From an uncultured virus (IMG/VR IMGVR_UViG_3300006103_001171) (taxonomy: Duplodnaviria > Heunggongvirae > Uroviricota > Caudoviricetes): 51,901 nt of DNA. The notes under the pieces were generated by a model, which saw nothing but the letters and a program-made list of their open reading frames with translations, was not told the DNA's origin and did no database searches. Shown piece after piece: positions 1-49,482 of this stretch. A program made the position numbers and the translations under genes. Position 1 is the stretch's first letter. The number at the start of each line of letters is the position of its first letter. The DNA lies in IMG/VR virus record IMGVR_UViG_3300006103_001171, one strand, 5' to 3'.

Positions 1-36
1 TTTTTAACATCGGATATTGATAATTTTATTACAAAA

Positions 37-531
37 ATGGCATATTTACTTGAAAATATAATGGAGGATAACGACCAAATTAGTTATGTTGAAAGCATGT
101 ATGATGAGGTAAATGAAGGTGGTTATGATTTTACCGTTGGTAATGAAGTAAATGAAAGAGTTAAAAGTGAGATTCAAGATGCCATATATGAATTTACATC
201 TCAAGATGATGAAGATGAAACAGATTATGCGAATAATTTAGATTCATCAAAAATTCATAAACTTAAAGGTGAGGTTATTAAATTATTAAATGATACACTT
301 CGTAATCTAGGTCAATCAGAAACTGCGTCAACAATTGAAAATGACATTGTAAGAATTGATATTGATAGACAAAGATTCCATTTAGATGGTAAAGTATTTG
401 TTAGTATAACTGACAAACAAAATAATAAAAAACATGATGGTTATGTTTATATAAAAGACTTACCAACTTACTTTAAAAATTATAAATTGTTTGAAACAAT
501 ACAAAGAATAAAATCAATAATTAAGTATTAA
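37..531 (+). CDS. hypothetical phage protein (acidic N-terminal part)
   Basis: 164-aa ORF, no recognisable motif. Confidence 0.6.
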   Translation: MAYLLENIMEDNDQISYVESMYDEVNEGGYDFTVGNEVNERVKSEIQDAIYEFTSQDDEDETDYANNLDSSKIHKLKGEVIKLLNDTLRNLGQSETASTIENDIVRIDIDRQRFHLDGKVFVSITDKQNNKKHDGYVYIKDLPTYFKNYKLFETIQRIKSIIKY

Positions 532-586
532 AACTAGTTCTTAAAGTCACTAAAAAAAAAATTTTTTAAAAATAATTCAAAAAAAA

Positions 587-628
587 CTTGACAATTCAAA
601 AACTTTTCGTATATTTGCATATATTTAT
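587..628 (+). promoter_or_regulatory. tandem promoters for tRNA array 1: Bacteroidota sigmaA-type (-33 CTTG, -7 TATATTTG 610-617) plus phage-type ATATTTAT (621-628)
   Basis: match to known Bacteroidota TTTG/TAnnTTTG consensus; ATATTTAT recurs upstream of many genes here. Confidence 0.75.
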
Positions 629-653
629 TAACAACAAGTAACAATTAAAAGAT

Positions 654-752
654 ATGAAAAAGGCATATACATATTATCAACCGAAAACGCAAGGGGGCAA
701 AACTCCTAATAGGCTGGGTGTATCTTTTTCTGATGAAGATGATTGTAAGTAA
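654..752 (+). CDS. leader peptide MKKAYTYYQPKTQGGKTPNRLGVSFSDEDDCK (putative attenuator of tRNA array 1)
   Basis: translated by hand; A-rich start context; followed by terminator; 12 of codons 5-18 are Tyr/Thr/Gln/Pro/Gly. Confidence 0.8.
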   Translation: MKKAYTYYQPKTQGGKTPNRLGVSFSDEDDCK

Positions 753-772
753 ACAATTAGTAAGATATAAGT

Positions 773-809
773 AAACCCCAGTCTGATGAAAATTCAAACT
801 GGGGTTTTT
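773..809 (+). terminator. intrinsic terminator / attenuator hairpin before tRNA array 1
   Basis: AAACCCCAGT...ACTGGGGTTT stem then T-tract; 711-718 AGGCTGGG can pair with its 5' arm. Confidence 0.85.
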
Positions 810-815
810 AATTTT

Positions 816-890
816 CGGGAAGTTCCACAGATGGCTATATGGGCTTGTTTTGGAGACAAGTGTTCGCTCGTTCGAATCGAGTTTTCCCGA
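816..890 (+). tRNA. tRNA-Pro(TGG)
   Basis: cloverleaf; anticodon arm CTTGT-TTTGGAG-ACAAG; TTCGAAT T-loop; no encoded CCA. Confidence 0.85.
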
Positions 891-939
891 CACAGATTGG
901 TTGGTACCGTAGACAGCAAAAATAAGGAACGGTATAAAA

Positions 940-1027
940 CTAAGTGTGTAGTCAATCGAAGACGACTCCCTTTGGAGCGGAGAATAGCTGTAAAAGGCTT
1001 ATGCAGGTTCGAGCCCTGTCACTTAGA
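940..1027 (+). tRNA. atypical tRNA-Pro(TGG) with long variable arm
   Basis: acceptor CTAAGTG/CACTTAG; loop TTTGGAG; about 20-nt variable arm; T-arm GCAGG-TTCGAGC-CCTGT. Confidence 0.65.
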
Positions 1028-1034
1028 CTAAAAT

Positions 1035-1106
1035 TGGGTTGTGGTGTAATGGTAACTACGTGTGGTTTTGGTCCACAAGTTTGGGGTTCGAGTCCCTACA
1101 ACCCAA
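1035..1106 (+). tRNA. tRNA-Gln(TTG)
   Basis: acceptor TGGGTTG/CAACCCA; TGTGG-TTTTGGT-CCACA. Confidence 0.9.
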
Positions 1107-1191
1107 CAAAGTAAAGAAGTAATTGGGTTAGCTGTTTTCCGTGGCTGGTCTGATGAAGGTTAAGTCCTTATGATTAAATAACGGATAAATT

Positions 1192-1263
1192 GGGATAGCC
1201 AGCAGGGTTCTGAAGACAGTCTGTAAAACTGAACTTCGTGTGTTTCGAGTACACCCTATCCCA
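1192..1263 (+). tRNA. atypical tRNA-Tyr(GTA), short variable loop
   Basis: acceptor GGGATAG/CTATCCC; loop CTGTAAA; irregular D- and T-arms. Confidence 0.55.
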
Positions 1264-1268
1264 CATTT

Positions 1269-1350
1269 GGGTCAGTCGCATAGAGGCAATTGCCGCGGAC
1301 TGTAAATCCGCTCTCTTCGGAGTTCACAGGTTCGAGTCCTGTTTGGCCCA
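1269..1350 (+). tRNA. tRNA-Tyr(GTA)
   Basis: GCGGA-CTGTAAA-TCCGC; long variable arm typical of bacterial Tyr. Confidence 0.9.
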
Positions 1351-1358
1351 CAAAAAAT

Positions 1359-1429
1359 GCCTCCAAAGCATATATGGTGATGTACCTGACTTGTAATCAG
1401 GGAAGTTGATTCGAGTTCAACTGGAGGCT
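1359..1429 (+). tRNA. tRNA-Thr(TGT)
   Basis: acceptor GCCTCCA/TGGAGGC; CCTGA-CTTGTAA-TCAGG. Confidence 0.9.
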
Positions 1430-1450
1430 CAAGAGTCTTATATAAAAAAT

Positions 1451-1522
1451 GCGGATATAGCACAGTGGTTAGTGTTGGGGTCTTCCAAACCTCAGACGTC
1501 AGTTCGAATCTGACTATCCGCT
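1451..1522 (+). tRNA. tRNA-Gly(TCC)
   Basis: acceptor GCGGATA/TATCCGC; loop CTTCCAA; U73. Confidence 0.9.
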
Positions 1523-1681
1523 CATTGGCTAATTTATTTTATAAAATAAATTTGTTTTGATTATGGAAAAAAATTGACTTTTATTGTATTTATATGTATA
1601 TTTGTGACGTAAAAAAGTTTTATAAATAGTGCTTTTGAAATATCTAAGCCACACATAACAAATAAAAATTAATTAATTAAA

Positions 1682-1954
1682 ATGGATTTAAAGTCTGGTA
1701 TCAGAAATCCCGAACAGTTACGGGTTGCAATTGAGATTGCTAAGTTAAATAATGAATTTTATTCTGATGCTGTATGGGCAATCCATAAGTATAAGTGGTA
1801 TAATTGGTATCAGAATCTGCACATTAAAGAAAATAGTCTAGAGGATATTGAGAATACTAAAATCTTTAATCAATTAGAAACTGAATATCCGAGTATTCAT
1901 GTGGATATTGAAAAAAATATTGATTATGAGATTATTAAAGCTAGTGCAAATTAA
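1682..1954 (+). CDS. hypothetical protein
   Basis: 90-aa ORF followed by hairpin AAAAGACGT..ACGTCTTTT. Confidence 0.55.
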   Translation: MDLKSGIRNPEQLRVAIEIAKLNNEFYSDAVWAIHKYKWYNWYQNLHIKENSLEDIENTKIFNQLETEYPSIHVDIEKNIDYEIIKASAN

Positions 1955-2057
1955 TTTAAGATTTAAAAAGACGTAGAAATACGTCTTTTTTTATTTAGTT
2001 GAGATTCAAAAAAAAAAAATATTTGTAAGTTTAAATTTAATTTTGTATATTTGCACT

Positions 2058-2306
2058 ATGACAAACACAATACTACTTGATTTAAATACTGAGAGAGACC
2101 CAATGATTCTATTCAGTAAACCTATGGAGCAGGACCCCCCAACTAATAGGGAAGAGATGCATAAGATGATAATTGAAGACATTGCATTTTTATCTGAAGC
2201 ATTAACGGTTATGATTAAACGTGCTGATGAAAATGGTTATTCCAATAAAGAAGCTCTTATTGAAGCTTCAATAAAAACACTTAATAGTCTTTTAATAGAA
2301 AATTAA
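2058..2306 (+). CDS. hypothetical protein
   Basis: ATG directly after TATATTTG promoter. Confidence 0.65.
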   Translation: MTNTILLDLNTERDPMILFSKPMEQDPPTNREEMHKMIIEDIAFLSEALTVMIKRADENGYSNKEALIEASIKTLNSLLIEN

Positions 2307-2352
2307 TAATAAAGTTGTAACGATAGAAATTAATTCGTATATTTGCATCGTA

Positions 2353-2661
2353 ATGAGAAAAAGACCTTCAGATACAAATTCAGAAAAACCGAAAGCACCA
2401 GTTAAAAAACAAGAAAGTGCTCTTGGTAAGTTACCACCAAAAAAGATGGTCATAACTAAGAATGGTATTGAAGAGGTTGATATTAAATTGGATACAACTA
2501 GAAAATCTGACAATAAAAAATACGTAAAGGTTTTAGCTACTGAGACAAGCTTAGTATTCAAGGAAATCGGTGATAGGGTAGCTAAAAAAGAATTAAAGTG
2601 GTCGTATTATACGACTGAAAACAATATTGGTGTACATTATTATCAAATATTAAACGATTAA
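2353..2661 (+). CDS. hypothetical protein
   Basis: ORF after own promoter, coupled to next gene. Confidence 0.65.
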   Translation: MRKRPSDTNSEKPKAPVKKQESALGKLPPKKMVITKNGIEEVDIKLDTTRKSDNKKYVKVLATETSLVFKEIGDRVAKKELKWSYYTTENNIGVHYYQILND

Positions 2662-2662
2662 A

Positions 2663-3058
2663 ATGAGTTTAAAGATTAAAATATCTGAAGATTTAAAAAC
2701 AGCGATGAAAGAAAAGAATACAATCAAATTAGGTATTCTTAGAGTTCTTAAGGCTGAGATTGAAAGAAATGAACAATCCGCTAATGGTAAAATTGAATTA
2801 CCAGATGGTGACGTTATTAAAATAGTTAAGAAACTAATTGAGGGTATAAAAGAAACTACTAAAGACCAAGTTGAAATTGATGCTTTAGATTTGTATTTAC
2901 CTAAACAAATGAATGAGGATGAAATAAAGGCCATTATTGCTCTTGTTAAACAATCTGGCATTTCACAGATGGGTGAATTCATGAAGTACTTCAAGGTGTA
3001 TCATGATGGTGAATATGATGGTAAATTATTAAGTAACCTTGTAAAAGAATCATTATAA
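2663..3058 (+). CDS. GatB/YqeY domain protein
   Basis: MSLKxKIxEDLKxAMK...LRVLKAEI...YLPKQM...MG signature. Confidence 0.9.
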   Translation: MSLKIKISEDLKTAMKEKNTIKLGILRVLKAEIERNEQSANGKIELPDGDVIKIVKKLIEGIKETTKDQVEIDALDLYLPKQMNEDEIKAIIALVKQSGISQMGEFMKYFKVYHDGEYDGKLLSNLVKESL

Positions 3059-3459
3059 TGGCATCATTATTACTTATCGAGATTTTCACAATTATATTTA
3101 TTCATTGGGTATCCGATTTTGTGTTACAAACAGATTGGGAAGCTAAGAATAAAAGCAAAGATGACTTAGCTTTACTGTCACATACATCAAAGTATTCGAT
3201 GTGCTGGTTTATTCCAATTTTTATTTTATTTACGAAATTTGGACATAATGGTGATGTCTATTATAGGGTTAATATATCGTTCTTTTTTTGTGTTATCACA
3301 CTTGTATCCCATACCATAACGGATTACTTTACATCGAGACTTAATTCTAAATTATGGGCTAAGGGTCATGTACATAACTTCTTTGTTAGTGTTGGTTGGG
3401 ACCAAATTTGTCATTACGTACAACTATTTTTAACATATTACTTATTAAAAACAATTTAA
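3058..3459 (+). CDS. DUF3307-like membrane protein
   Basis: HxxxDFxLQT, HxxxD and DQxxH motifs. Confidence 0.8.
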   Translation: MASLLLIEIFTIIFIHWVSDFVLQTDWEAKNKSKDDLALLSHTSKYSMCWFIPIFILFTKFGHNGDVYYRVNISFFFCVITLVSHTITDYFTSRLNSKLWAKGHVHNFFVSVGWDQICHYVQLFLTYYLLKTI

Positions 3460-4010
3460 TGGCAAATTCGCAAATTCACGAAACATTGGATGCAATGTTG
3501 GAAAATCCTAAAACTAAGAATTTTTTAGGTCACTTAGTTAAGAATTACTTTCCAACTTCTAACGTTCAGAAAGTCTTGAATCGTCCAACAGGACCATTCA
3601 AGTGTGTTTTAACCAAAGAGAATTTATTCTCAGTTCAAGACATCCTTGAAGGTATTCAAACTGAGGAATACAAAAAGGACTTTAATGAGTACTTAACTCG
3701 TTTCTTGGATACTAACTTTAGTGGTGAAACACCAATGGGTAAACTAATTGGTGATAAGAAAATGGGGTTCACTGGTAAAGAAACCACAACTTATATGTCT
3801 TTCACAGCATTACAAGAGTTTTATAACTGGGTTATAACTAAGTCTTTTGCTGGTGATAAACACATCAATTGGCTTTTAGGTGGTGTTAGAGATAATTTTT
3901 ATAGCAAACCTAAACAAGTCGTTGAGAAAAAAAGCAACGTATCAACGTATACACTTGGTGAAGTTGATGCATTTAAGAAATTAAAAGCCAAGTTCGAGAA
4001 TGAAAATTAA
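3459..4010 (+). CDS. hypothetical protein
   Basis: start MANSQ overlaps upstream stop. Confidence 0.7.
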   Translation: MANSQIHETLDAMLENPKTKNFLGHLVKNYFPTSNVQKVLNRPTGPFKCVLTKENLFSVQDILEGIQTEEYKKDFNEYLTRFLDTNFSGETPMGKLIGDKKMGFTGKETTTYMSFTALQEFYNWVITKSFAGDKHINWLLGGVRDNFYSKPKQVVEKKSNVSTYTLGEVDAFKKLKAKFENEN

Positions 4011-6009: not shown

Positions 6010-6411
6010 ATGCCAATTTATAATAAACCAGCCCCAGCTAGACTTAAACGACTTGAAGAATCTGATTATATTACAATAAAAGGTGAGCAAAAAGACATAA
6101 CTGTTGTAACTAAGCAAGAAACTAGGTCTGTAATTAAGGAGTTAATCGAAAAGGAATGCGGCCCTGCTCTAATCAAGGCTACAAGTAATGTATTATCAAC
6201 ATTTGATACAATGATTGGTAATAATATAAAGCCTGAACTGAATGAGAAATTTGCCGTAATGCAACGAGATGTTGTTGCTTATATTGATTTTAAGATTGAT
6301 TTATTATCACAAAAGATATGTGATATGTTAACAACTAGGAAGTTTAATGAGGAAGTGGATAAAAAGGTGAAGGAAAAATTAGAAAAATTAAAAATGAGTG
6401 GTAGATTTTAA
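6010..6411 (+). CDS. hypothetical protein
   Basis: ORF after TATATTTG promoter. Confidence 0.6.
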   Translation: MPIYNKPAPARLKRLEESDYITIKGEQKDITVVTKQETRSVIKELIEKECGPALIKATSNVLSTFDTMIGNNIKPELNEKFAVMQRDVVAYIDFKIDLLSQKICDMLTTRKFNEEVDKKVKEKLEKLKMSGRF

Positions 6412-6477
6412 ATTATAAAAAATATAGCTGTTTACAGGTCCTACTGAAGTTATTAAAGAAATACTAAAAAAAGAAAT

Positions 6478-6837
6478 ATGAGTGTTATAAAATTTGAGTT
6501 AAATGATAACCATGTTAAGTTGCTTAGACAACTTAAATGGTCTACTTCTACTGACAATAAGACTATTGTTAGTGTTGAGGATATTAATGAACCGTTGTTG
6601 TTCAACGAGAATAACGTTTACGAAGCGGTTGATTTGATATTGAATGGTGCACCAGCTAATTTGGACCCAATGAATACTTTTGATGCGCCAGTATATACCC
6701 CAGAGCAAATAGCTGAATGGGATAAGTTATTATCTGAATTACCTATGGCTTTGGATATTATTCTTTATAATGGTAATTTCAATTTGGGTATTTACAAAAC
6801 TAAATTCCACATAAGAGATTGGAAACTAATAAATTAA
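6478..6837 (+). CDS. hypothetical protein
   Basis: 119-aa ORF. Confidence 0.65.
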   Translation: MSVIKFELNDNHVKLLRQLKWSTSTDNKTIVSVEDINEPLLFNENNVYEAVDLILNGAPANLDPMNTFDAPVYTPEQIAEWDKLLSELPMALDIILYNGNFNLGIYKTKFHIRDWKLIN

Positions 6838-15812: not shown

Positions 15813-16661
15813 ATGAAAGTATTTAGAATACAAGACAAGATTACGTCTAGAGAAACTGGTACATTTAAGCAATACTTAAATGACATTGCAAACATTAAGC
15901 CATTTACACCTTCTGAAGAAGAAGCATGCGCAAAAATGGCTGCTATGGGTGATAAAGCGGCTATTGACGAGTTGGTAACACGTAATTTAAGATTTGTAGT
16001 AACAGTTGCTAAGCAATACGAAACATCAACCATAAGCCTAGAGGATTTGGTTAATGAGGGTAATATTGGATTAATACTTGCCGCTGAGAAGTATAATTTA
16101 ACCATGGGCTTTAAGTTTATCACTTACGGTGTATTCTGGATTAGAAAACTAATCTTGGAATATCTATCCAATCATAGCAAATTAATCAGGCTACCAACCA
16201 ATAAAATTTCTAACATTAGCAAATTAACACAAAAGGTTAATGCGTTAGAACAAAGCCTAGGTCGTGAGGTTGATATTACTGAAGTAAACTATGCTTCTGA
16301 TTCAGACCTATCTGATGAAGATATTTTAGAACTTCAAAGAATATCAAATATTAGTTTTGAATCATTTGATTCACCATTAGATGGTGATGAAGTTGGTTCT
16401 CGTTATGATTTTATTGCTAATACTAACGAAAAAACAACTGACCACATTGTGCTTGATACAGACTTAAAGAATCAAATTAATGATATATTAAATATTCTTA
16501 AGCCTAGGGATAAAAAGGTTATGATTTCTTTGTTTGGTTTAGATGGTTCAAATCCATTAACCCTAAAAGAAGTTAGTGAAGATGTTGGGTTAACTAGTGA
16601 GATGGTTAGAAAAATTAAGGAAAGCAGTCTTGTTAAACTTAGAAATAAGTTTACGTTATAG
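15813..16661 (+). CDS. RpoD/SigA-family sigma factor (short Bacteroidota type)
   Basis: NLRFVVTVAKQY, DLVNEGNIGL, FKFITYGVFWIR, region 4 HTH. Confidence 0.9.
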   Translation: MKVFRIQDKITSRETGTFKQYLNDIANIKPFTPSEEEACAKMAAMGDKAAIDELVTRNLRFVVTVAKQYETSTISLEDLVNEGNIGLILAAEKYNLTMGFKFITYGVFWIRKLILEYLSNHSKLIRLPTNKISNISKLTQKVNALEQSLGREVDITEVNYASDSDLSDEDILELQRISNISFESFDSPLDGDEVGSRYDFIANTNEKTTDHIVLDTDLKNQINDILNILKPRDKKVMISLFGLDGSNPLTLKEVSEDVGLTSEMVRKIKESSLVKLRNKFTL

Positions 16662-34360: not shown

Positions 34361-34422
34361 AAATTTGTTAGTTTGAAATAACTAACGTATATTTGCAGAG
34401 TAATTAAAAACAAAGCAAATTT

Positions 34423-34493
34423 GGTTCTATAGCTCAACGGCAGAGCTGGACTCTCTAAAAGTCTTGATGTTGGTTCGATTCCGACTAGAATCA
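34423..34493 (+). tRNA. amber suppressor tRNA (anticodon CTA)
   Basis: full cloverleaf; GGACT-CTCTAAA-AGTCT places CTA at 34455-34457; own promoter. Confidence 0.85.
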
Positions 34494-34541
34494 CACTTTA
34501 CATTTTTTAACAATTATTGTATATTTATAAAAAAAAGAAAT

Positions 34542-39443: not shown

Positions 39444-40771
39444 CATTTAAATAACAATTAAATCGTTATTTATTTGATTACGGACATTATTGTTCATAAT
39501 CACACTAGTGTAATCCAGTGGCTTTGTCATTGAAGCAAGGTGATTGTCGTAATATCTTTTCATTATGTTGATAGCTGAGTTTAAATCTCTATCTATTTCG
39601 ACATTATCACTTAGTTTAACAGTTCTATCCTTTAACTCAACTTTATCTTTAAATAGCTTACCAGTAAGACTATTCAATTGAGTGGTGTATTTTTCATCAA
39701 TCTTAATTAAATCACATTGTTTATTTTGTGACTTATACTTAAGAAATTCTAAGAACATATTAATATTAGATTCATTAAATGATTTTCTAATACCCTTTTT
39801 ATTCTTATTTACTCCTTCTGTTGACATAAGGGTTTTTACTGTTAAATCGCCAACTACAATTGTTTTGTAGTTCATATTCACTAATTTTTTACTCTGAATA
39901 TGTAGAGTTTGTTTAATTTGACTATTCTTCTTATTATATAGTTTTCTTTTAACTTTATTTAATTTATTAAAGGATTTACTATTCTTTTGTTTTTTGCTTA
40001 ACTTAGACTTAATCTTATTAATCTGTTTACCGAAGTACTGATTAATCCTCTTTGATTTATTTTTAAGAATAACAACGGTACCATTGTTATCCACACCAGT
40101 ACCTAAATTCTTTAGACCTAAATCAATAGCGAGTACTCTTGATTTAATTATTAAATCATCTGAGTAGTTTATTTTATCATCGACAACAATATCACAAAGC
40201 CACTTATTATTAATAAATTTGACTCTAATTTCTTTAATATTTAATTCAGATAAGTTTGTTAAATGACTTGAATATTTAAAATTAATTTTATTTATTGAAA
40301 TTATACTATTTTCTTTGAATATCCAACCATTTAGGTTAAAAACTAATGTATGATACTTTCCGAGTTCTTTTGTCTTTGGTGGTCTAGCTGTATTATCTTT
40401 TTTAATAAGTGTGAAGAAAGATTGGTATGATTGAAATATTTCAGCTGCCACAACTTGTGCTGCTTTTGCATTAAATTGTTTCCAAGATTCCTTGGTTGAA
40501 TATTTCAATGGTGGAATGAGGTTAATTAAATCAAACTTTGAGTATACCTTTTTAGTTGATTCATAGTGTTTTTGCTGAATATCAATAAGAGTGTTCCAAA
40601 TATCCATACGAATATCAGACAACTGTTTTAGTTGAGATACCTGTTCTGTTGTTGGGTGTAACCTTATTGAGTATGTTTTCATTTAATATATAATTAACTT
40701 TATTCTCTGTTATATATTATAAATATCAGGTAAAAATAAAAAAGACAATAAATTTCGAAAAAAGTTGGGAT
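39429..40771. mobile_element. TnpB cassette with 13-bp direct repeat AAAAAGTTGGGAT, no transposase
   Basis: repeat at 39429-39441 and 40759-40771. Confidence 0.75.
39447..40682 (-). CDS. tnpB: TnpB-family RNA-guided nuclease, rearranged RuvC, no Zn finger
   Basis: KTYSIRLHPT; AIDLG; VVGDL; IDEKYTTQ; DRDLNSAINI. Confidence 0.88.
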   Translation of the reverse strand: MKTYSIRLHPTTEQVSQLKQLSDIRMDIWNTLIDIQQKHYESTKKVYSKFDLINLIPPLKYSTKESWKQFNAKAAQVVAAEIFQSYQSFFTLIKKDNTARPPKTKELGKYHTLVFNLNGWIFKENSIISINKINFKYSSHLTNLSELNIKEIRVKFINNKWLCDIVVDDKINYSDDLIIKSRVLAIDLGLKNLGTGVDNNGTVVILKNKSKRINQYFGKQINKIKSKLSKKQKNSKSFNKLNKVKRKLYNKKNSQIKQTLHIQSKKLVNMNYKTIVVGDLTVKTLMSTEGVNKNKKGIRKSFNESNINMFLEFLKYKSQNKQCDLIKIDEKYTTQLNSLTGKLFKDKVELKDRTVKLSDNVEIDRDLNSAINIMKRYYDNHLASMTKPLDYTSVIMNNNVRNQINNDLIVI

Positions 40772-42616: not shown

Positions 42617-43759
42617 ATGATAGATAAAATTGGTATTAGATATACGTTTAAGATTTCGGTACCACTAGATGTTTTAAAGATAAAAGAAGTTTTTACTAAG
42701 AATGGTCATCAACTATTTCTAGTTGGTGGTTGTATTCGTGATACCATATTAAATGTAACACCTAAAGATTTTGATTTAGTTACAAATGTTTCGCCAGAAG
42801 AGGTTATTAGAATTTTAAAGCATGAAAAGTTTGTTACAACAATATTAGAAACTGGAAAATCATTTGGTGTTATTAATGTTATAACTAGCGATAATGAATT
42901 TGAAATTGCTACGATGCGCAATGATGTGTTTAGTGATACACCAAATGGGAGGCATCCAGACCGTGTTATCTTTGGTGATATTTTTACTGATTGTATGCGA
43001 AGGGATTATACCATGAATGCGCTTTTTTATGACTTAGATACTAATGAAATAATTGACTTCGTTAATGGTGTTAATGATATTGAAAAATCTTTAATTAAGG
43101 CGGTTGGGAATCCAGAAGAAAGATTTAAAGAAGATAAATTACGCAAACTTAGGGGCGTTAGGCTGGCGGCCAGATTTGGCTCTGAATTGGACCCTGAGAT
43201 TGATGCCGCATTAAAAAGAGATGCCAGTCTGGAAGGTATATCTGGTGAAAGAATCAGAGATGAGTTTATAAAGGGTATCAAATCAGCTAAGTCAGTTGTT
43301 AAATTCTTGGAAATGCTTGATAGGTATCATTTATTTAATTGGATATTTAAGGGCTTACATGTAAATAAAGACTTTATTGAGGATAGAAATGTTGTAGTTC
43401 TTATTGCTATTTTATTAAAGGGTAACAACATAGGTGTTATAGCTAAGCAATTGAACAATCTTAAGTATTCTGTTGATGAGATTAAATCAATCACATTCTT
43501 ATTGAGTTTATTGCATTTAACACCTGAGACAGCAGTTGCTTTAAAGAGACAACAAAAGAACGCTTACACATCAAATCATCAAATAATTGATTTTGCTAAC
43601 CGTGAAGGTTTAAATACAAGATTGATACATGCGTTTTTAAATTTTGAGTTGACCGTTACTGGCGAAGAAGTTATGCAAAAGTTCAATTTGAAGCAAGGCA
43701 AAGAGTTAGGTGATATGATAAATAAATTGGAATTGGATAATTTTAAAAAAAGTTTGTAA
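42617..43759 (+). CDS. cca: tRNA nucleotidyltransferase (CCA-adding / poly(A) polymerase family)
   Basis: VGGCIRD..KDFD, RRDYTMNA, RFKEDKLR, SGERIRDE; the tRNA genes here lack encoded CCA. Confidence 0.88.
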   Translation: MIDKIGIRYTFKISVPLDVLKIKEVFTKNGHQLFLVGGCIRDTILNVTPKDFDLVTNVSPEEVIRILKHEKFVTTILETGKSFGVINVITSDNEFEIATMRNDVFSDTPNGRHPDRVIFGDIFTDCMRRDYTMNALFYDLDTNEIIDFVNGVNDIEKSLIKAVGNPEERFKEDKLRKLRGVRLAARFGSELDPEIDAALKRDASLEGISGERIRDEFIKGIKSAKSVVKFLEMLDRYHLFNWIFKGLHVNKDFIEDRNVVVLIAILLKGNNIGVIAKQLNNLKYSVDEIKSITFLLSLLHLTPETAVALKRQQKNAYTSNHQIIDFANREGLNTRLIHAFLNFELTVTGEEVMQKFNLKQGKELGDMINKLELDNFKKSL

Positions 43760-45763: not shown

Positions 45764-47056
45764 ATGAAGTGTATTAAAACAAGGAAAATTCAGTTGTTGC
45801 CATTAGGTGATTTTAATGAAACCTACAAATACGTTAATAATTTAAGTTCAGGCTTAGCGTCACTCGGTAATGAAATGATAAGGAGACATGTTTTATCATT
45901 TTATGAAATGGACGTACTAAAAGATTCAACTCCAGATGCTAAAACTAGAACTAATCTAATGAAGGAAAAATACGGAATGTCACTCCAAAATATGGGTTAT
46001 GATGTTTCAAAAAAGTATTCAGCCACAATTCCTTCGAATATTCGCACAACATTTAATCAAAAGGTCTTTAAAAAAATAAAAGACAGTTATTTTGGTATTT
46101 CAATAAATAAAGAATCTATACCATCATTCAGAAAAGACTCAATGGCAATTCCATTTAGTTATGATAATAATATCAGTTTGAACGAATTTGGGGTGTATGA
46201 TTTTAAATTCTTTAATAATGTCAATTTTAAATTAAACTTTGGACGTGATAGGTCTAATAATAAAGTTATCATTGACAGAATTTTATCTAATGAATATAAG
46301 CCATTATCTTCACATATAAAAATTGATAAGAAAAAAATATTCTTAGATTTAACATATTCTTTTGACTCAGATGAAAATGTTAACATATCTAAAGATAAAA
46401 TTGTTGGTGTTGATTTAGGTATAAATAGACCTATGACAATTGCTAGGGAAGATGGTACTTATGCAAAACAAATAGAAATCGGTGGTAAGATTCAATACTC
46501 TAGATTATCAATTCAAAAACAAAGAAGAAGCTTACAAAGTGCTTTAAGGCATTCATCTGGTGGTCATGGTACTGGTAAAAAAATAGCTAAATTAAAATCA
46601 TTAAAAGATTATGAACATAATTTCATGAAAACCACTAATGATACACTAAGTCGTGAATTAATAAAATATTGCGTTAATGAAGGTGTTGGTGTAATTAAAT
46701 TAGAAAATCTAACTGGTATAACAGAAAATGCTAATAATTTTCTTAAGTCTTGGTCTTATTATCAATTACAACAAATGATTGAGTATAAAGCTGCTGAATT
46801 TGGAATTACAGTATTATATGTTAATCCTAGATATACCTCTCAAACTTGTCCAACTTGTGGCAATATTGATAAAACTCAAAGAGATTCAAAGGATAAAACA
46901 AAATTTGCTTGTTCAAATGAAATTTGTTCTGATATTAATATAAATAAAGATGCTGATATTATTGGTGCCTTTAATATCTCAAAAAGAGATGGTGTTATCG
47001 CTTCTAAAAAAATATTACAAGAAAAAAGTGATAAAAAGTTGTTAGTTTCAGAATAA
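45764..47056 (+). CDS. compact type V effector, Cas12f-like (430 aa)
   Basis: RuvC-I GVDLG, RuvC-II KLENL, YTSQTCPTC Zn finger, RuvC-III DADIIGAFNI; adjacent to CRISPR array. Confidence 0.85.
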   Translation: MKCIKTRKIQLLPLGDFNETYKYVNNLSSGLASLGNEMIRRHVLSFYEMDVLKDSTPDAKTRTNLMKEKYGMSLQNMGYDVSKKYSATIPSNIRTTFNQKVFKKIKDSYFGISINKESIPSFRKDSMAIPFSYDNNISLNEFGVYDFKFFNNVNFKLNFGRDRSNNKVIIDRILSNEYKPLSSHIKIDKKKIFLDLTYSFDSDENVNISKDKIVGVDLGINRPMTIAREDGTYAKQIEIGGKIQYSRLSIQKQRRSLQSALRHSSGGHGTGKKIAKLKSLKDYEHNFMKTTNDTLSRELIKYCVNEGVGVIKLENLTGITENANNFLKSWSYYQLQQMIEYKAAEFGITVLYVNPRYTSQTCPTCGNIDKTQRDSKDKTKFACSNEICSDININKDADIIGAFNISKRDGVIASKKILQEKSDKKLLVSE

Positions 47057-47074
47057 GTTCGTATATTTGCATAA

Positions 47075-47240
47075 ATAAAAAAAGTTCTTTTACATATTGA
47101 GCCTAACGGCTGGGCTGGTTGTTCAGCCTTAAGGTGAATCCACGAATAAACGTGGTGATACTCTAGAGTATTGGAGGAAACTCACTCACCAAATACCTTT
47201 AAATATAGGGTTTATAATGTCGTTAATGGTATAAACAATT
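47075..47240 (+). ncRNA. putative tracrRNA (ends approximate)
   Basis: promoter TATATTTG 47062-47069; anti-repeat ATACCTTT-AAATATAGGGT 47193-47211; hairpin loop GTTGTT 47118-47123 complementary to repeat 3' end AACAAC. Confidence 0.75.
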
Positions 47241-47257
47241 AAGAAATGCGCTATTCA

Positions 47258-47886
47258 GGTGTTAATGACCCTAATTTGAAAGGTATAAACAACTAACGCT
47301 TGCAATGCAGTTCAGGTAGTGTTGGTGTTAATGACCCTAATTTGAAAGGTATAAACAACAGTATTATATAATTGTTGTTGCATTTGATGGTGTTAATGAC
47401 CCTAATTTGAAAGGTATAAACAACAGAGGTGTTCTAGCTTGACTTCACTAATATGGTGTTAATGACCCTAATTTGAAAGGTATAAACAACGGACTGGCAT
47501 CGTTAATGGTTGCTGGTCACGGTGTTAATGACCCTAATTTGAAAGGTATAAACAACAAAACTTTAATAGACCACTCTTAGGGTCTAGGTGTTAATAACCC
47601 TAATTTGAAAGGTATAAACAACCATAATATTATTTTTAATTCACCGCAATGTGGTGTTAATGACCCTAATTTGAAAGGTATAAACAACGGGTTGAGTTAA
47701 CTGGTCTGTTATTGTCATGGTGTTAATGACCCTAATTTGAAAGGTATAAACAACGAAACTGAACGTTTACTAAAAGACAAAGAAGGTGTTAATGACCCTA
47801 ATTTGAAAGGTATAAACAACGAGACTGAACATTTACTAAAAGACAAGGAAGGTGTTAATGACCCTAATTTGAAAGGTATAAACAAC
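47258..47886 (+). CRISPR. CRISPR array: 10 x 36-nt repeat GGTGTTAATGACCCTAATTTGAAAGGTATAAACAAC, 9 spacers (eight 30 nt, one 29 nt)
   Basis: repeats start at 47258, 47324, 47389, 47455, 47521, 47587 (one G>A change), 47653, 47719, 47785, 47851. Confidence 0.98.
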
Positions 47887-47937: not shown

Positions 47938-48016
47938 CTTGACAATTCAAAATAAGTTTGTATATTTGCATTGTAATTAAAAAATTTTACACTTTTTAAA
48001 AAAGTGACATATTTAT
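47938..48016 (+). promoter_or_regulatory. tandem host-type (TATATTTG 47961-47968) and phage-type (ATATTTAT 48009-48016) promoters for tRNA array 2
   Basis: shares AAAAAACTTGACAATTCAAAA with the array-1 promoter. Confidence 0.75.
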
Positions 48017-48047
48017 AACAAAAGGGAAACCCATAAACAAAAAGATA

Positions 48048-48131
48048 ATGATAAACGTTAACAACATATTTAATTTTAATTTTGAAGCAGCTGAGGCAGA
48101 TTTTAGCCATCAGAGGGTTGAGGTATTGTAG
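48048..48131 (+). CDS. leader peptide MINVNNIFNFNFEAAEADFSHQRVEVL (putative attenuator of tRNA array 2)
   Basis: hand translation; Ile/Asn/Phe/Glu/Ala/Asp-rich; followed by terminator. Confidence 0.8.
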   Translation: MINVNNIFNFNFEAAEADFSHQRVEVL

Positions 48132-48160
48132 TTAACGAATCGAAAGAAACATATTAAACG

Positions 48161-48191
48161 AAAGCCCTTAACCAAAAGTTAAGGGTTTTTT
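48161..48191 (+). terminator. intrinsic terminator / attenuator hairpin before tRNA array 2
   Basis: GCCCTTAAC-CAAAA-GTTAAGGGT then T-tract; 48116-48123 GGTTGAGG can pair with 5' arm. Confidence 0.85.
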
Positions 48192-48200
48192 ATTTATATT

Positions 48201-48271
48201 CGAGGTGTAGTTTAGTGGTAAAATGCCGCACTGTCTATGCGGTGTCACGATTTCGATTATCGTCATCTCGG
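48201..48271 (+). tRNA. tRNA-Asp(GTC)
   Basis: CCGCA-CTGTCTA-TGCGG; G73. Confidence 0.85.
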
Positions 48272-48273
48272 CA

Positions 48274-48358
48274 CGGAAAAAATTCCTAGGGATAGGAACT
48301 ATCTTGATAAAGATAAGTACTGCACGAATCATAATAAGTTCGAATCTTAATTTTCCGC
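48274..48358 (+). tRNA. degenerate/atypical tRNA-Ile(GAT)-like
   Basis: acceptor CGGAAAA/TTTTCCG; TATCT-TGATAA-AGATA (6-nt loop); TTCGAAT. Confidence 0.45.
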
Positions 48359-48398
48359 AACGGAGAATCACAACTCTAAAAAAAATGTGAAACTGGAG

Positions 48399-48471
48399 GG
48401 GGGGTCATGTACCAAGGCTGGCGAGAAATACTTGCAATATTTCTGGAAGATTTCAATTATCTTACTCTCCA
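48399..48471 (+). tRNA. tRNA-Ala(TGC)
   Basis: AAATA-CTTGCAA-TATTT; G3:U70 and A73. Confidence 0.8.
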
Positions 48472-48534
48472 CAGGTGTCACTGATATACTGACCGAGCAT
48501 GGGGATTAGTAATAATCCCTAGTATATCTAATAA

Positions 48535-48609
48535 GGTGCCGTAGCTGAGATGGTTTAGCGGTTGGTTGAAGCCCAGCGACTTACAAGGGTTCGATTCCCT
48601 TCGGTACCA
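48535..48609 (+). tRNA. tRNA-Phe(GAA)
   Basis: GTTGG-TTGAAGC-CCAGC; acceptor GGTGCCG/CGGTACC. Confidence 0.85.
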
Positions 48610-48666
48610 GATAGTCAATGTTAATCCACCTGCACGTTGGTGATTATCGCACACTAGGAATAGTGA

Positions 48667-49060
48667 CTAAGTGATTAACAAAGTTCTTTGATTTATGATA
48701 TTAGCAATAATATCAAGAAATTTTTTAGATGTATTTATTTTGAATTTTTGTTGAAATGATGTATCAATAATACATAAATCAATTTTATTTTCAATACATG
48801 ATTTAAATTTATTCTGGTCATTTATTTGTGTCTGGTTTAATTTATTAATACCGAAAATCGGTTCATAATGAAATATTCCATTCAATTCAAATGCTAAATT
48901 AAGTGACGGAATGTAGATGTCTAATTCAGAACCGATTGCATCCTTCTTATTATAGTCTATTTGTAGATTAGGGTAAAGAATTGTTAATTGTTCTTCAAGA
49001 TATATTTCGAGTTTAGAGCGTCTTGTGCCAGTTGTTTTATGTTTATTATAATTGTGAGTA
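48667..49060 (-). pseudogene. C-terminal remnant of PD-(D/E)XK/Vsr-like homing endonuclease
   Basis: SKLE...ELDIYIPSLNLAFELNGIFHY; no plausible start before it runs into tRNA-Glu antisense. Confidence 0.65.
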
Positions 49061-49074
49061 AATTGAATAAAAAT

Positions 49075-49160
49075 GCTATGGTCGACTAGTGGCTCAGGTC
49101 GCATCCCTTTCAAGGATGTGGGGAGAAATCCCCTCACGGGTTCGAATCCCGTCCATAGTA
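49075..49160 (+). tRNA. tRNA-Glu(TTC) with long variable arm
   Basis: CATCC-CTTTCAA-GGATG; variable hairpin GGGA-GAAA-TCCC. Confidence 0.85.
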
Positions 49161-49482
49161 CAAATGTTTTAGTTATGATTAAGCGAACAATTAGTGGTAG
49201 TTTTACTAATATGGTAAAACCTGACCCAAGTGTTATGAAAGATAGTGATTTTGATTTGTTATCGTTCTGATAGAACACTGGTTGTATTCACAATATGTAA
49301 GAGCGCATATACCAATTGCTGCTTTATGGGACAGAAAAGTTGAGGGGAAAGTTCGATTCTTTCGAAGGACACATTATTAACAAGTTAAAAAAAATGAGCG
49401 CAATGAAACAGCTGGACGCAATGTCACCAATCAGATAAGAGAAGAAAGAAAGGTTCTGATTGGTACGAGACAAACACGAAAA

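Follow-up and report, generated by a model that had tools for sequence, protein, structure and literature searches.

A putative leader-peptide attenuator, one of four paralogous units, upstream of a tRNA gene array in an uncultured phage

The 51,901-nt stretch of DNA from an uncultured phage analysed here in its entirety (IMG/VR record IMGVR_UViG_3300006103_001171; hereafter the window, to whose plus strand all coordinates refer) carries near its left end a compact element, unit A, in which a promoter, a short open reading frame (ORF) and an intrinsic terminator precede an array of tRNA genes (Table 1). A first-pass annotation made from the sequence alone had described this succession, a promoter, a 32-residue ORF at 654-752, a strong terminator and then tRNAs for Pro, Pro, Gln, Tyr, Tyr, Thr and Gly, as a leader-peptide attenuator whose codons match the tRNAs downstream, and we recovered each of these elements in that order. 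The unit A promoter (TTGACA, 16 nt, then TATATT) matches the sigma-70 consensus at 11 of 12 positions, and its downstream box, GTATATTTGCA, occurs 29 times in the window with at most one mismatch versus 2.4 expected, 27 of the 29 copies being on the plus strand; given this excess, the phage therefore has in this box a genuine promoter type. Its sequence agrees with TAnnTTTG, the form of Bacteroidota promoters. The terminator hairpin is separated from the leader stop codon by 20 nt and is directly followed on its 3' side by TTTTTAATTTT, which runs to 815, and because the first tRNA call of the array begins immediately afterwards, at 816, there is no space for a further promoter.

The residues encoded by the 5' half of the leader ORF are those that the array serves. 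Codons 5-18 (666-707) read Y-T-Y-Y-Q-P-K-T-Q-G-G-K-T-P, with 12 of the 14 residues within {Y, T, Q, P, G}, exactly as first counted, and the residues K, T, Y, Q, P and G, which make up the control block of codons 2-18 almost entirely, constitute the amino-acid set of the full A array in related phages.

Table 1. Features of units A and B in the window
Feature	Position	Strand	Description
Unit A promoter	587-619	+	TTGACA at 588-593, 16-nt spacer, box GTATATTTGCA at 609-619; copies head other tRNA units
A-rich 5' untranslated leader, 34 nt	620-653	+	no Shine-Dalgarno-like run; 94% identical to G002
Unit A leader ORF	654-752	+	ATG start, 32 codons and TAA; MKKAYTYYQPKTQGGKTPNRLGVSFSDEDDCK
Control block, codons 2-18	657-707	+	16 of 17 residues (exception Ala4) are K, T, Y, Q, P or G
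Region 1	655-675	+	pairs with 717-733 in the consensus fold and in the single-sequence minimum free energy fold (ribosome-free RNA)
Region 2	709-733	+	5' half (710-721, core AGGCTGGG at 711-718) pairs with terminator 5' arm; 3' part (717-733) pairs with region 1
Unit A intrinsic terminator	773-815	+	hairpin 773-807 (arms 773-786 and 794-807), -17.6 kcal/mol; T-tract 805-815
tRNA array A	816-1523	+	4 of 7 tRNAs at Rfam gathering score, 3 low-scoring
Pro-like tRNA	816-891	+	ARAGORN default; no Rfam match
Pro-like tRNA	940-1028	+	ARAGORN default; Rfam 942-1025 at 20.9 bits, below gathering score
tRNA-Gln	1035-1107	+	ARAGORN default and Rfam gathering score
Tyr-like tRNA	1192-1264	+	ARAGORN only with thresholds lowered to 80%
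tRNA-Tyr	1269-1351	+	ARAGORN default and Rfam gathering score
tRNA-Thr	1359-1430	+	ARAGORN default and Rfam gathering score
tRNA-Gly	1451-1523	+	ARAGORN default and Rfam gathering score
Unit B promoter	47938-47970	+	TTGACAATTCAAAA start and GTATATTTGCA box as in unit A
Unit B leader ORF	48048-48131	+	27 codons and TAG; residues 8-19 hold F x4, A x3, E x2, D x1; third E at residue 25
Unit B terminator	48160-48200	+	hairpin -15.1 kcal/mol and T-tract, ending 1 nt before the tRNA
tRNA array B	48201-49161	+	Asp 48201-48272, Ala-like 48399-48472, Phe 48535-48609, Glu 49075-49161

Unit A is one of four paralogous units (A to D) that share the promoter and consist of promoter, an ORF of 25-34 codons, a hairpin with T-tract and tRNA genes. 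Two lie inside the window (654-815 and 48048-48200) and two more were found upstream in near-identical or related records (G001, G003 and G005). Unit C, located in G001 ~5.7 kb upstream of the window start, has a 26-codon ORF rich in Leu, Val and Cys, followed by a terminator, tRNA-Cys and three tRNA-Leu genes, and in unit D, present in G003 and G005, a leader rich in Ile, Asn, Met, Ser, Trp, Arg and His precedes tRNAs for Trp, Ser, His, Ile and Arg. As G003 ends with the same 74 bases that begin G002, array D therefore continues into Asn, four Arg and Ser. The comparison covered whole or large parts of nine related contigs in addition to the window, falling into two clades, that of the window (G001-G005) and a second one (G006-G010, of which G006-G009 were compared), in which the product of the gene preceding unit A shares 35-37% identity with its counterpart in the window. 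Units are present in every compared contig that spans the region, with orthologues of the unit A leader in G002, G004, G006, G007, G008 and G009. According to CheckV, completeness is 100% for G007 (362 kb) and 17% for G001 (60.5 kb), from which the window's phage, with its Bacteroidota-type promoters, is estimated at ~350 kb.

A scan of 0.95 Mb in ten contigs (plus strand as oriented) for a promoter box within 150 nt, an ATG-initiated ORF of 15-45 residues and, 8-50 nt past the stop codon, a hairpin with T-tract returned 33 rows, comprising 24 tRNA-array leaders, two other frames over C leaders and seven rows with no tRNA within 900 nt, whose hairpins range from -7.0 to -14.8 kcal/mol. The B unit of G002 escaped the scan since its box ends in A, not G. 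Matches to the promoter word in L016-L019 proved to be unrelated DNA and were dropped.

All four units are kept in the second clade, and the A leaders of the two clades differ in the order of their control residues while having the same composition. Between the window and G002, identity amounts to 100% in the promoter, 96% in codons 1-19, 57% in codons 20-32, 88% in the terminator and 61% in the first tRNA of array A. The nearest records (G001, L001 and L002) are identical to the window over the unit A locus and thus carry no comparative signal, and no variant letters were seen over 560-1000 where contigs of four DNA runs cover it. In an annotated phage collection, megablast of positions 1-4000 found no match, and blastn of 540-1700 matched only tRNA genes of unrelated phages.

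The correspondence between leaders and arrays is clearest in the complete genome G007, in which the four arrays, as called by ARAGORN, serve the amino acids GKPQTY (A), ADEF (B), CLV (C) and HIMNRSW (D), an exact partition of all 20. For each of the four G007 leaders the set of its own array is the best fit, and whole-peptide enrichment is strong for A, C and D (binomial p = 1e-6, 2.5e-5 and 5e-7) and weak for B (0.035). Since the control residues are clustered, we used the longest run within one amino-acid set as a statistic. These runs measure 17, 11, 5 and 16 residues in the G007 leaders A, B, C and D, respectively. Those of A, B and D find their equal in 1-3 of 1335 short ORFs, counts consistent with the leaders themselves, which form part of this null, and in none of 253 long ORFs (86,854 residues), while the run of C is equalled by 58 short and 21 long ORFs. 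The C leader of the window's clade has a run of 10 residues (equalled by 4 of 1055 short ORFs), and the 14-residue run of the window's A leader is equalled by 5 of the 1055 short ORFs of the window, G002 and G003, again a null that contains the leaders. A four-by-four table of leader residues against sets gave chi2 = 70 (p ~1e-11, 66 of 115 residues on the diagonal) and 72.5 with a second set of orthologues; its sets were defined after the leaders had been seen, and the G007 sets derived from ARAGORN only turned out identical to them. An accidental ORF in AT-rich spacer that is rich in array amino acids by luck would fit the weak whole-peptide enrichment of single B leaders (p = 0.018-0.035, with 512 of 1335 short ORFs doing as well), but such coincidence is barely credible as an explanation for four of four G007 leaders matching their own array, for runs of 11-17 residues as rare as those above and for the recurrence of all units in a clade with a ~36% identical neighbouring protein. 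The attenuator geometry of the first-pass annotation is thus supported by the four paralogous units, by their enrichment for the residues of their own arrays and by their retention in the second clade.

An attenuator requires alternative pairings in the transcript, and the first-pass annotation had pointed to an 8-nt match between the segment just past the control block and the terminator 5' arm. This pairing (AGGCTGGG at 711-718 with CCCAGTCT at 777-784) is present, and RNAduplex extends it to 710-721 with 775-785 at -15.8 kcal/mol, a value reached by 1.3% of 300 dinucleotide shuffles. For each distinct unit we determined with RNAduplex the best pairing between the leader (from the ATG to the hairpin) and the terminator 5' arm, i.e. 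between region 2 and region 3 (2:3), and judged it on the individual sequences, as the clades are offset from each other by one column at the terminator in alignment A2. The best pairing starts at ORF nucleotides 56-71, just after the control block, in each A, C and D unit of either clade, and the sequence of region 2 alters along with that of the terminator arm. Both strands are changed in unit A of the second clade, where the pairing is a perfect 8-bp helix; three distinct arm sequences of unit C are each matched by a fitting region 2, and the second-clade unit D, whose terminator is quite different, shows a perfect helix of 7 bp. When cognate arms were compared to arms of the other types, 0-2 of 12 non-cognate arms paired as well for A and 0-1 of 12 for D of the second clade, with a moderate advantage for C.

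A candidate competing helix between region 1 and region 2 (1:2) emerged from the RNAalifold consensus of six A units, in which 655-662 pairs with 726-733 and 669-675 with 717-723. It has 15 pairs, of which two are changed on both sides and several are broken in some rows, and it loses to 2:3 in equilibrium folding of the truncated transcript. Nucleotides 717-721 of region 2 are used by both helices. To mimic a translating ribosome, as had been proposed in the first-pass annotation, we folded the transcript cut just before the terminator 3' arm while moving a 28-nt footprint along the ORF. The mean 2:3 probability in the window's unit A was 0.64-0.80 with the A site at codons 2-16, zero at codons 18-26 and 0.52-0.87 from codon 27 onward.

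Taken together, these features indicate that the region 587-815 is probably a ribosome-mediated leader-peptide attenuator that gates the tRNA array behind it, one of four paralogous gates. Transcription would start at the common promoter and a ribosome would follow on the 32-codon leader, whose translation we infer. A shortage of aminoacyl-tRNAs for K, T, Y, Q, P or G would stall this ribosome in codons 2-16 and keep region 1 off region 2, leaving region 2 to pair with the emerging terminator 5' arm, so that the hairpin at 773-807 would be blocked and the polymerase would read into the tRNA genes. With fast decoding, the ribosome would cover region 2 while its A site passes codons 18-26 and clear it at the stop codon, upon which 1:2 would re-form, the terminator would fold 20 nt past the stop and transcription would end at 815. 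Such unstalled termination would need 1:2 to form first and a ribosome at the stop codon to lie between regions 2 and 3. The net effect would be a negative feedback from decoding speed onto the supply of the decoding tRNAs.

Several observations weigh against this attenuator reading and concern pairing, leader-array correspondence and gene order. The duplexes of single units are only modestly unusual (p = 0.013-0.13 versus dinucleotide shuffles), and unit B has no convincing 2:3 helix: its duplexes in the second clade reach only -4.4 to -6.4 kcal/mol, non-cognate arms do as well or better in 5, 9 and 12 of 12 cases in the three second-clade units compared and in 3 of 12 in the window, and in the window the 2:3 probability stays at or below 0.15 in all states. 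In the footprint analysis, 2:3 of the window's unit A forms with a stalled ribosome but also in the ribosome-free RNA (0.74) and when the ribosome has reached the stop codon (0.82). Equilibrium folding therefore supports the step from stalling to antiterminator and by itself predicts no termination when the ribosome is not stalled, which would have to rest on kinetics or sterics. Co-variation between leaders and arrays is likewise imperfect, in that Lys, Gly(gcc) and Thr(ggt) are missing from array A of the window although the leader keeps those codons, and the C array of G001 lacks Val although its leader retains four Val codons. Moreover, all 25 distinct anticodons of G007 have a readable codon in their own leader under strict wobble rules, yet synonymous resampling according to the phage's own usage gives 22.7 of the 25 (P = 0.06, not significant), with P = 0.09 for G008 and P = 0.30 for G002. 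The match between leader and array is therefore seen at the level of amino acids, with no significant signal of codon-level tuning. Finally, a protein gene lies between terminator and first tRNA in the D units and in the B unit of G007, and no obvious leader ORF follows the fifth promoter copy, which precedes tRNA-Met.

Part of the imperfect correspondence may reflect loss of tRNA genes. ARAGORN at default settings calls six tRNAs in the window's array A (Pro, Pro, Gln, Tyr, Thr and Gly), and the seven listed in the first-pass annotation all stand when low-scoring calls are admitted, three of them (both Pro and the second Tyr gene) being of this kind. These three are possibly degenerate and perhaps decaying; the first shares only 61% identity with its G002 counterpart, and the Ala-like gene of array B, called by ARAGORN at a relaxed threshold only, is the fourth low-scoring tRNA-like gene in the window. 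The G002 A array additionally has Lys, Gly(gcc) and Thr(ggt), and it decodes 16 of the first 18 leader codons versus 9 of 18 for the array of the window. The window's phage thus seems to be losing tRNA genes while retaining its leaders, and the reduced arrays whose leaders keep the codons (A of the window and C of G001) imply that leaders trail, or are indifferent to, recent tRNA gene loss. The co-variation that the first-pass annotation had proposed to look for is borne out in that each leader fits its own array and composition is kept in the second clade, and falls short in the window's A array and in codon choice.

The weak pairing in unit B raises the question of whether leader translation could act on the pre-tRNA transcript with no antiterminator, the hairpin serving in processing or stability, or ribosome position directly affecting termination or RNase access. 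This scheme would accommodate the lack of a convincing 2:3 helix in B, the location of the stop codon 19-33 nt past region 2 in the A and D units, unlike the classical trp layout, and the failure of equilibrium folding to predict unstalled termination. We nevertheless consider it unlikely, because the hairpins have the full form of intrinsic terminators, with GC-rich stems of -11 to -17.7 kcal/mol and a T run, because region 2 and the terminator arm change in step in A, C and D, and because the putative 1:2 helix shares nucleotides with 2:3.

Alternatively, the short ORFs could encode small peptides with a job of their own, e.g. a membrane peptide in the case of the Leu/Val-rich C leader, which resembles a transmembrane segment, with the hairpin ending their mRNA and the tRNAs being made through unregulated read-through or from transcription upstream. 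The C-terminal halves of the A leaders do keep some peptide-level similarity, and promoter, small ORF and terminator form the usual early-gene layout in the window, but four different peptides mirror their own arrays in two clades with altered order and preserved composition, the nucleotide conservation of the control block exceeds that of the rest of the ORF, and in A, B and C the gap between T-tract and first tRNA measures only 6-19 nt and contains no promoter box, all of which makes independent peptides a very improbable explanation.

How does a leader-peptide attenuator of this kind relate to known systems? In trpL, region 1 holds the control codons, region 2 is the antiterminator strand and 3:4 is the terminator. 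The C and B units of the window's clade resemble trpL in having region 2 within 6-14 nt of the stop codon, whereas in A and D a ribosome at the stop would leave region 2 uncovered, and six or seven control amino acids take the place of one. Closer in this respect are the multivalent enterobacterial attenuators, such as the ilvGMEDA leader with its Ile, Leu and Val codons and the thr leader with Thr and Ile codons. Like these, the phage units combine a short, presumably translated ORF, clustered codons for several amino acids and an intrinsic terminator with overlapping 2:3 and 3:4 pairings and a putative 1:2 helix, and a stall at control codons would be read as shortage. Unlike them, the phage units would gate tRNA genes rather than biosynthetic enzymes, such that the signal would feed back on the decoders, the four leaders share out all 20 amino acids, and the promoters are of the Bacteroidota type. 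T-box riboswitches, which act by direct binding of uncharged tRNA, independently of translation, and whose targets are mostly aminoacyl-tRNA synthetase and amino-acid genes, are comparable in that they too read the state of tRNA and switch a terminator; a search of the window at the gathering score, and of 540-1700 at E <=10, matched neither a T-box nor one of the Rfam leader families (Trp, His, Leu, Thr, Phe etc.), the sole leader-type match in 540-1700 being a weak L10_leader (23.7 bits versus a cut-off of 44). With T4-type phage tRNA clusters, which are transcribed as precursors and trimmed by host enzymes, the arrays share the grouping of tRNA genes, and we know of no translated leader or attenuator in such clusters. 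Known leader-peptide attenuators are defined in part by their control of genes for amino-acid synthesis or charging, and the genes found behind these leaders are tRNAs. We found no publication on leader-peptide attenuation of tRNA genes, phage or cellular, in full-text literature searches judged by titles and the openings of abstracts, nor is such a case known to us. What would be new, then, is the application of a known attenuation mechanism to tRNA genes.

Individual units have additional features. In B units only, a perfect palindrome followed by a second box-like TATTTATAA lies between promoter and leader ORF (window 47971-48047; L005 1350-1408); this arrangement occurs in the two clades alike and may represent an operator or another promoter. 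The D units of the window's clade carry before tRNA-Trp a conserved gene for a protein of 56-58 residues with no assigned function (G003 63775-63951; G005 reverse 6348-6518), which, as it sits behind the D terminator, would therefore be gated with the tRNAs. The copy of the promoter in front of tRNA-Met is separated from this gene by 150-420 nt of conserved non-coding DNA (G003 61998-62201; G005 reverse 3543-3947; G007 reverse 303620-304076), and this unit may use a different, non-translational control for initiator or elongator Met; a tmRNA gene (Rfam 66.9 bits, gathering 47) is located just upstream of it in G003 (61088-61448; L038 1088-1448). HNH or homing-endonuclease genes lie within or at the head of tRNA arrays, in the window at 48667-49278 on the minus strand, where the frame overlaps tRNA-Glu on the opposite strand, and further in G007 (reverse 354660-355060 and ~324540-324940, one such gene being situated between the B terminator and the first tRNA) and in G002 (~100-900).

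Elsewhere in the window, a tRNA with anticodon CTA, which reads TAG, is encoded at 34423-34494, immediately behind a promoter box of its own (34387-34397) and with no leader ORF, and G002 has one CTA tRNA inside its A array and a second copy elsewhere; this tRNA hints at recoding of TAG in part of the genome. The window also encodes a CCA-adding tRNA nucleotidyltransferase (42617-43759) and a sigma-factor-like protein (15813-16661), both recognized by PHROGs matches, in keeping with a phage that carries out much of its translation and transcription itself. In the region 45764-47886 lies a gene for a 430-residue TnpB/Cas12f-like protein (Pfam Cas12f1-like TNB domain and OrfB_IS605), downstream of which follow a promoter box (47061-47071), ~190 nt of non-coding DNA and a CRISPR-like array (47258-47886) with ~10 copies of a 36-nt repeat and spacers of roughly 30 nt, a candidate for a compact phage-borne type V CRISPR system. 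The minus strand carries a second TnpB-like gene (39447-40682).

Textbook leader-peptide attenuation acts on genes for the synthesis or charging of amino acids. If it controls tRNA genes here, the ribosome that serves as sensor on the test codons and the tRNAs produced to read those codons would form a direct loop, which would explain how large phages regulate their tRNA sets. The first-pass annotation had proposed that the phage senses the loss of host tRNAs to anticodon nucleases or Cas13; judging from the logic of the circuit this is one possible use, and homeostasis of the phage's own tRNA supply or timing of infection fits equally well. We lean slightly towards a four-channel homeostat of decoding capacity, in which four arrays spanning the 20 amino acids, each with a leader that samples its own set, would be topped up whenever that set runs short. 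Phage tRNA sets have mostly been regarded as a supplement to codon usage or a reserve against tRNA-cleaving defences, and with gates that each predict a response to shortage of a defined amino-acid group, when and why phages express tRNAs would become testable. The units are compact (~230 nt), modular and specific for amino-acid groups and could serve as sensors of decoding speed. If the homeostat exists, translation of the phage would be largely independent of the host tRNA pool, also under starvation, host shut-off and tRNA-cleaving defences.

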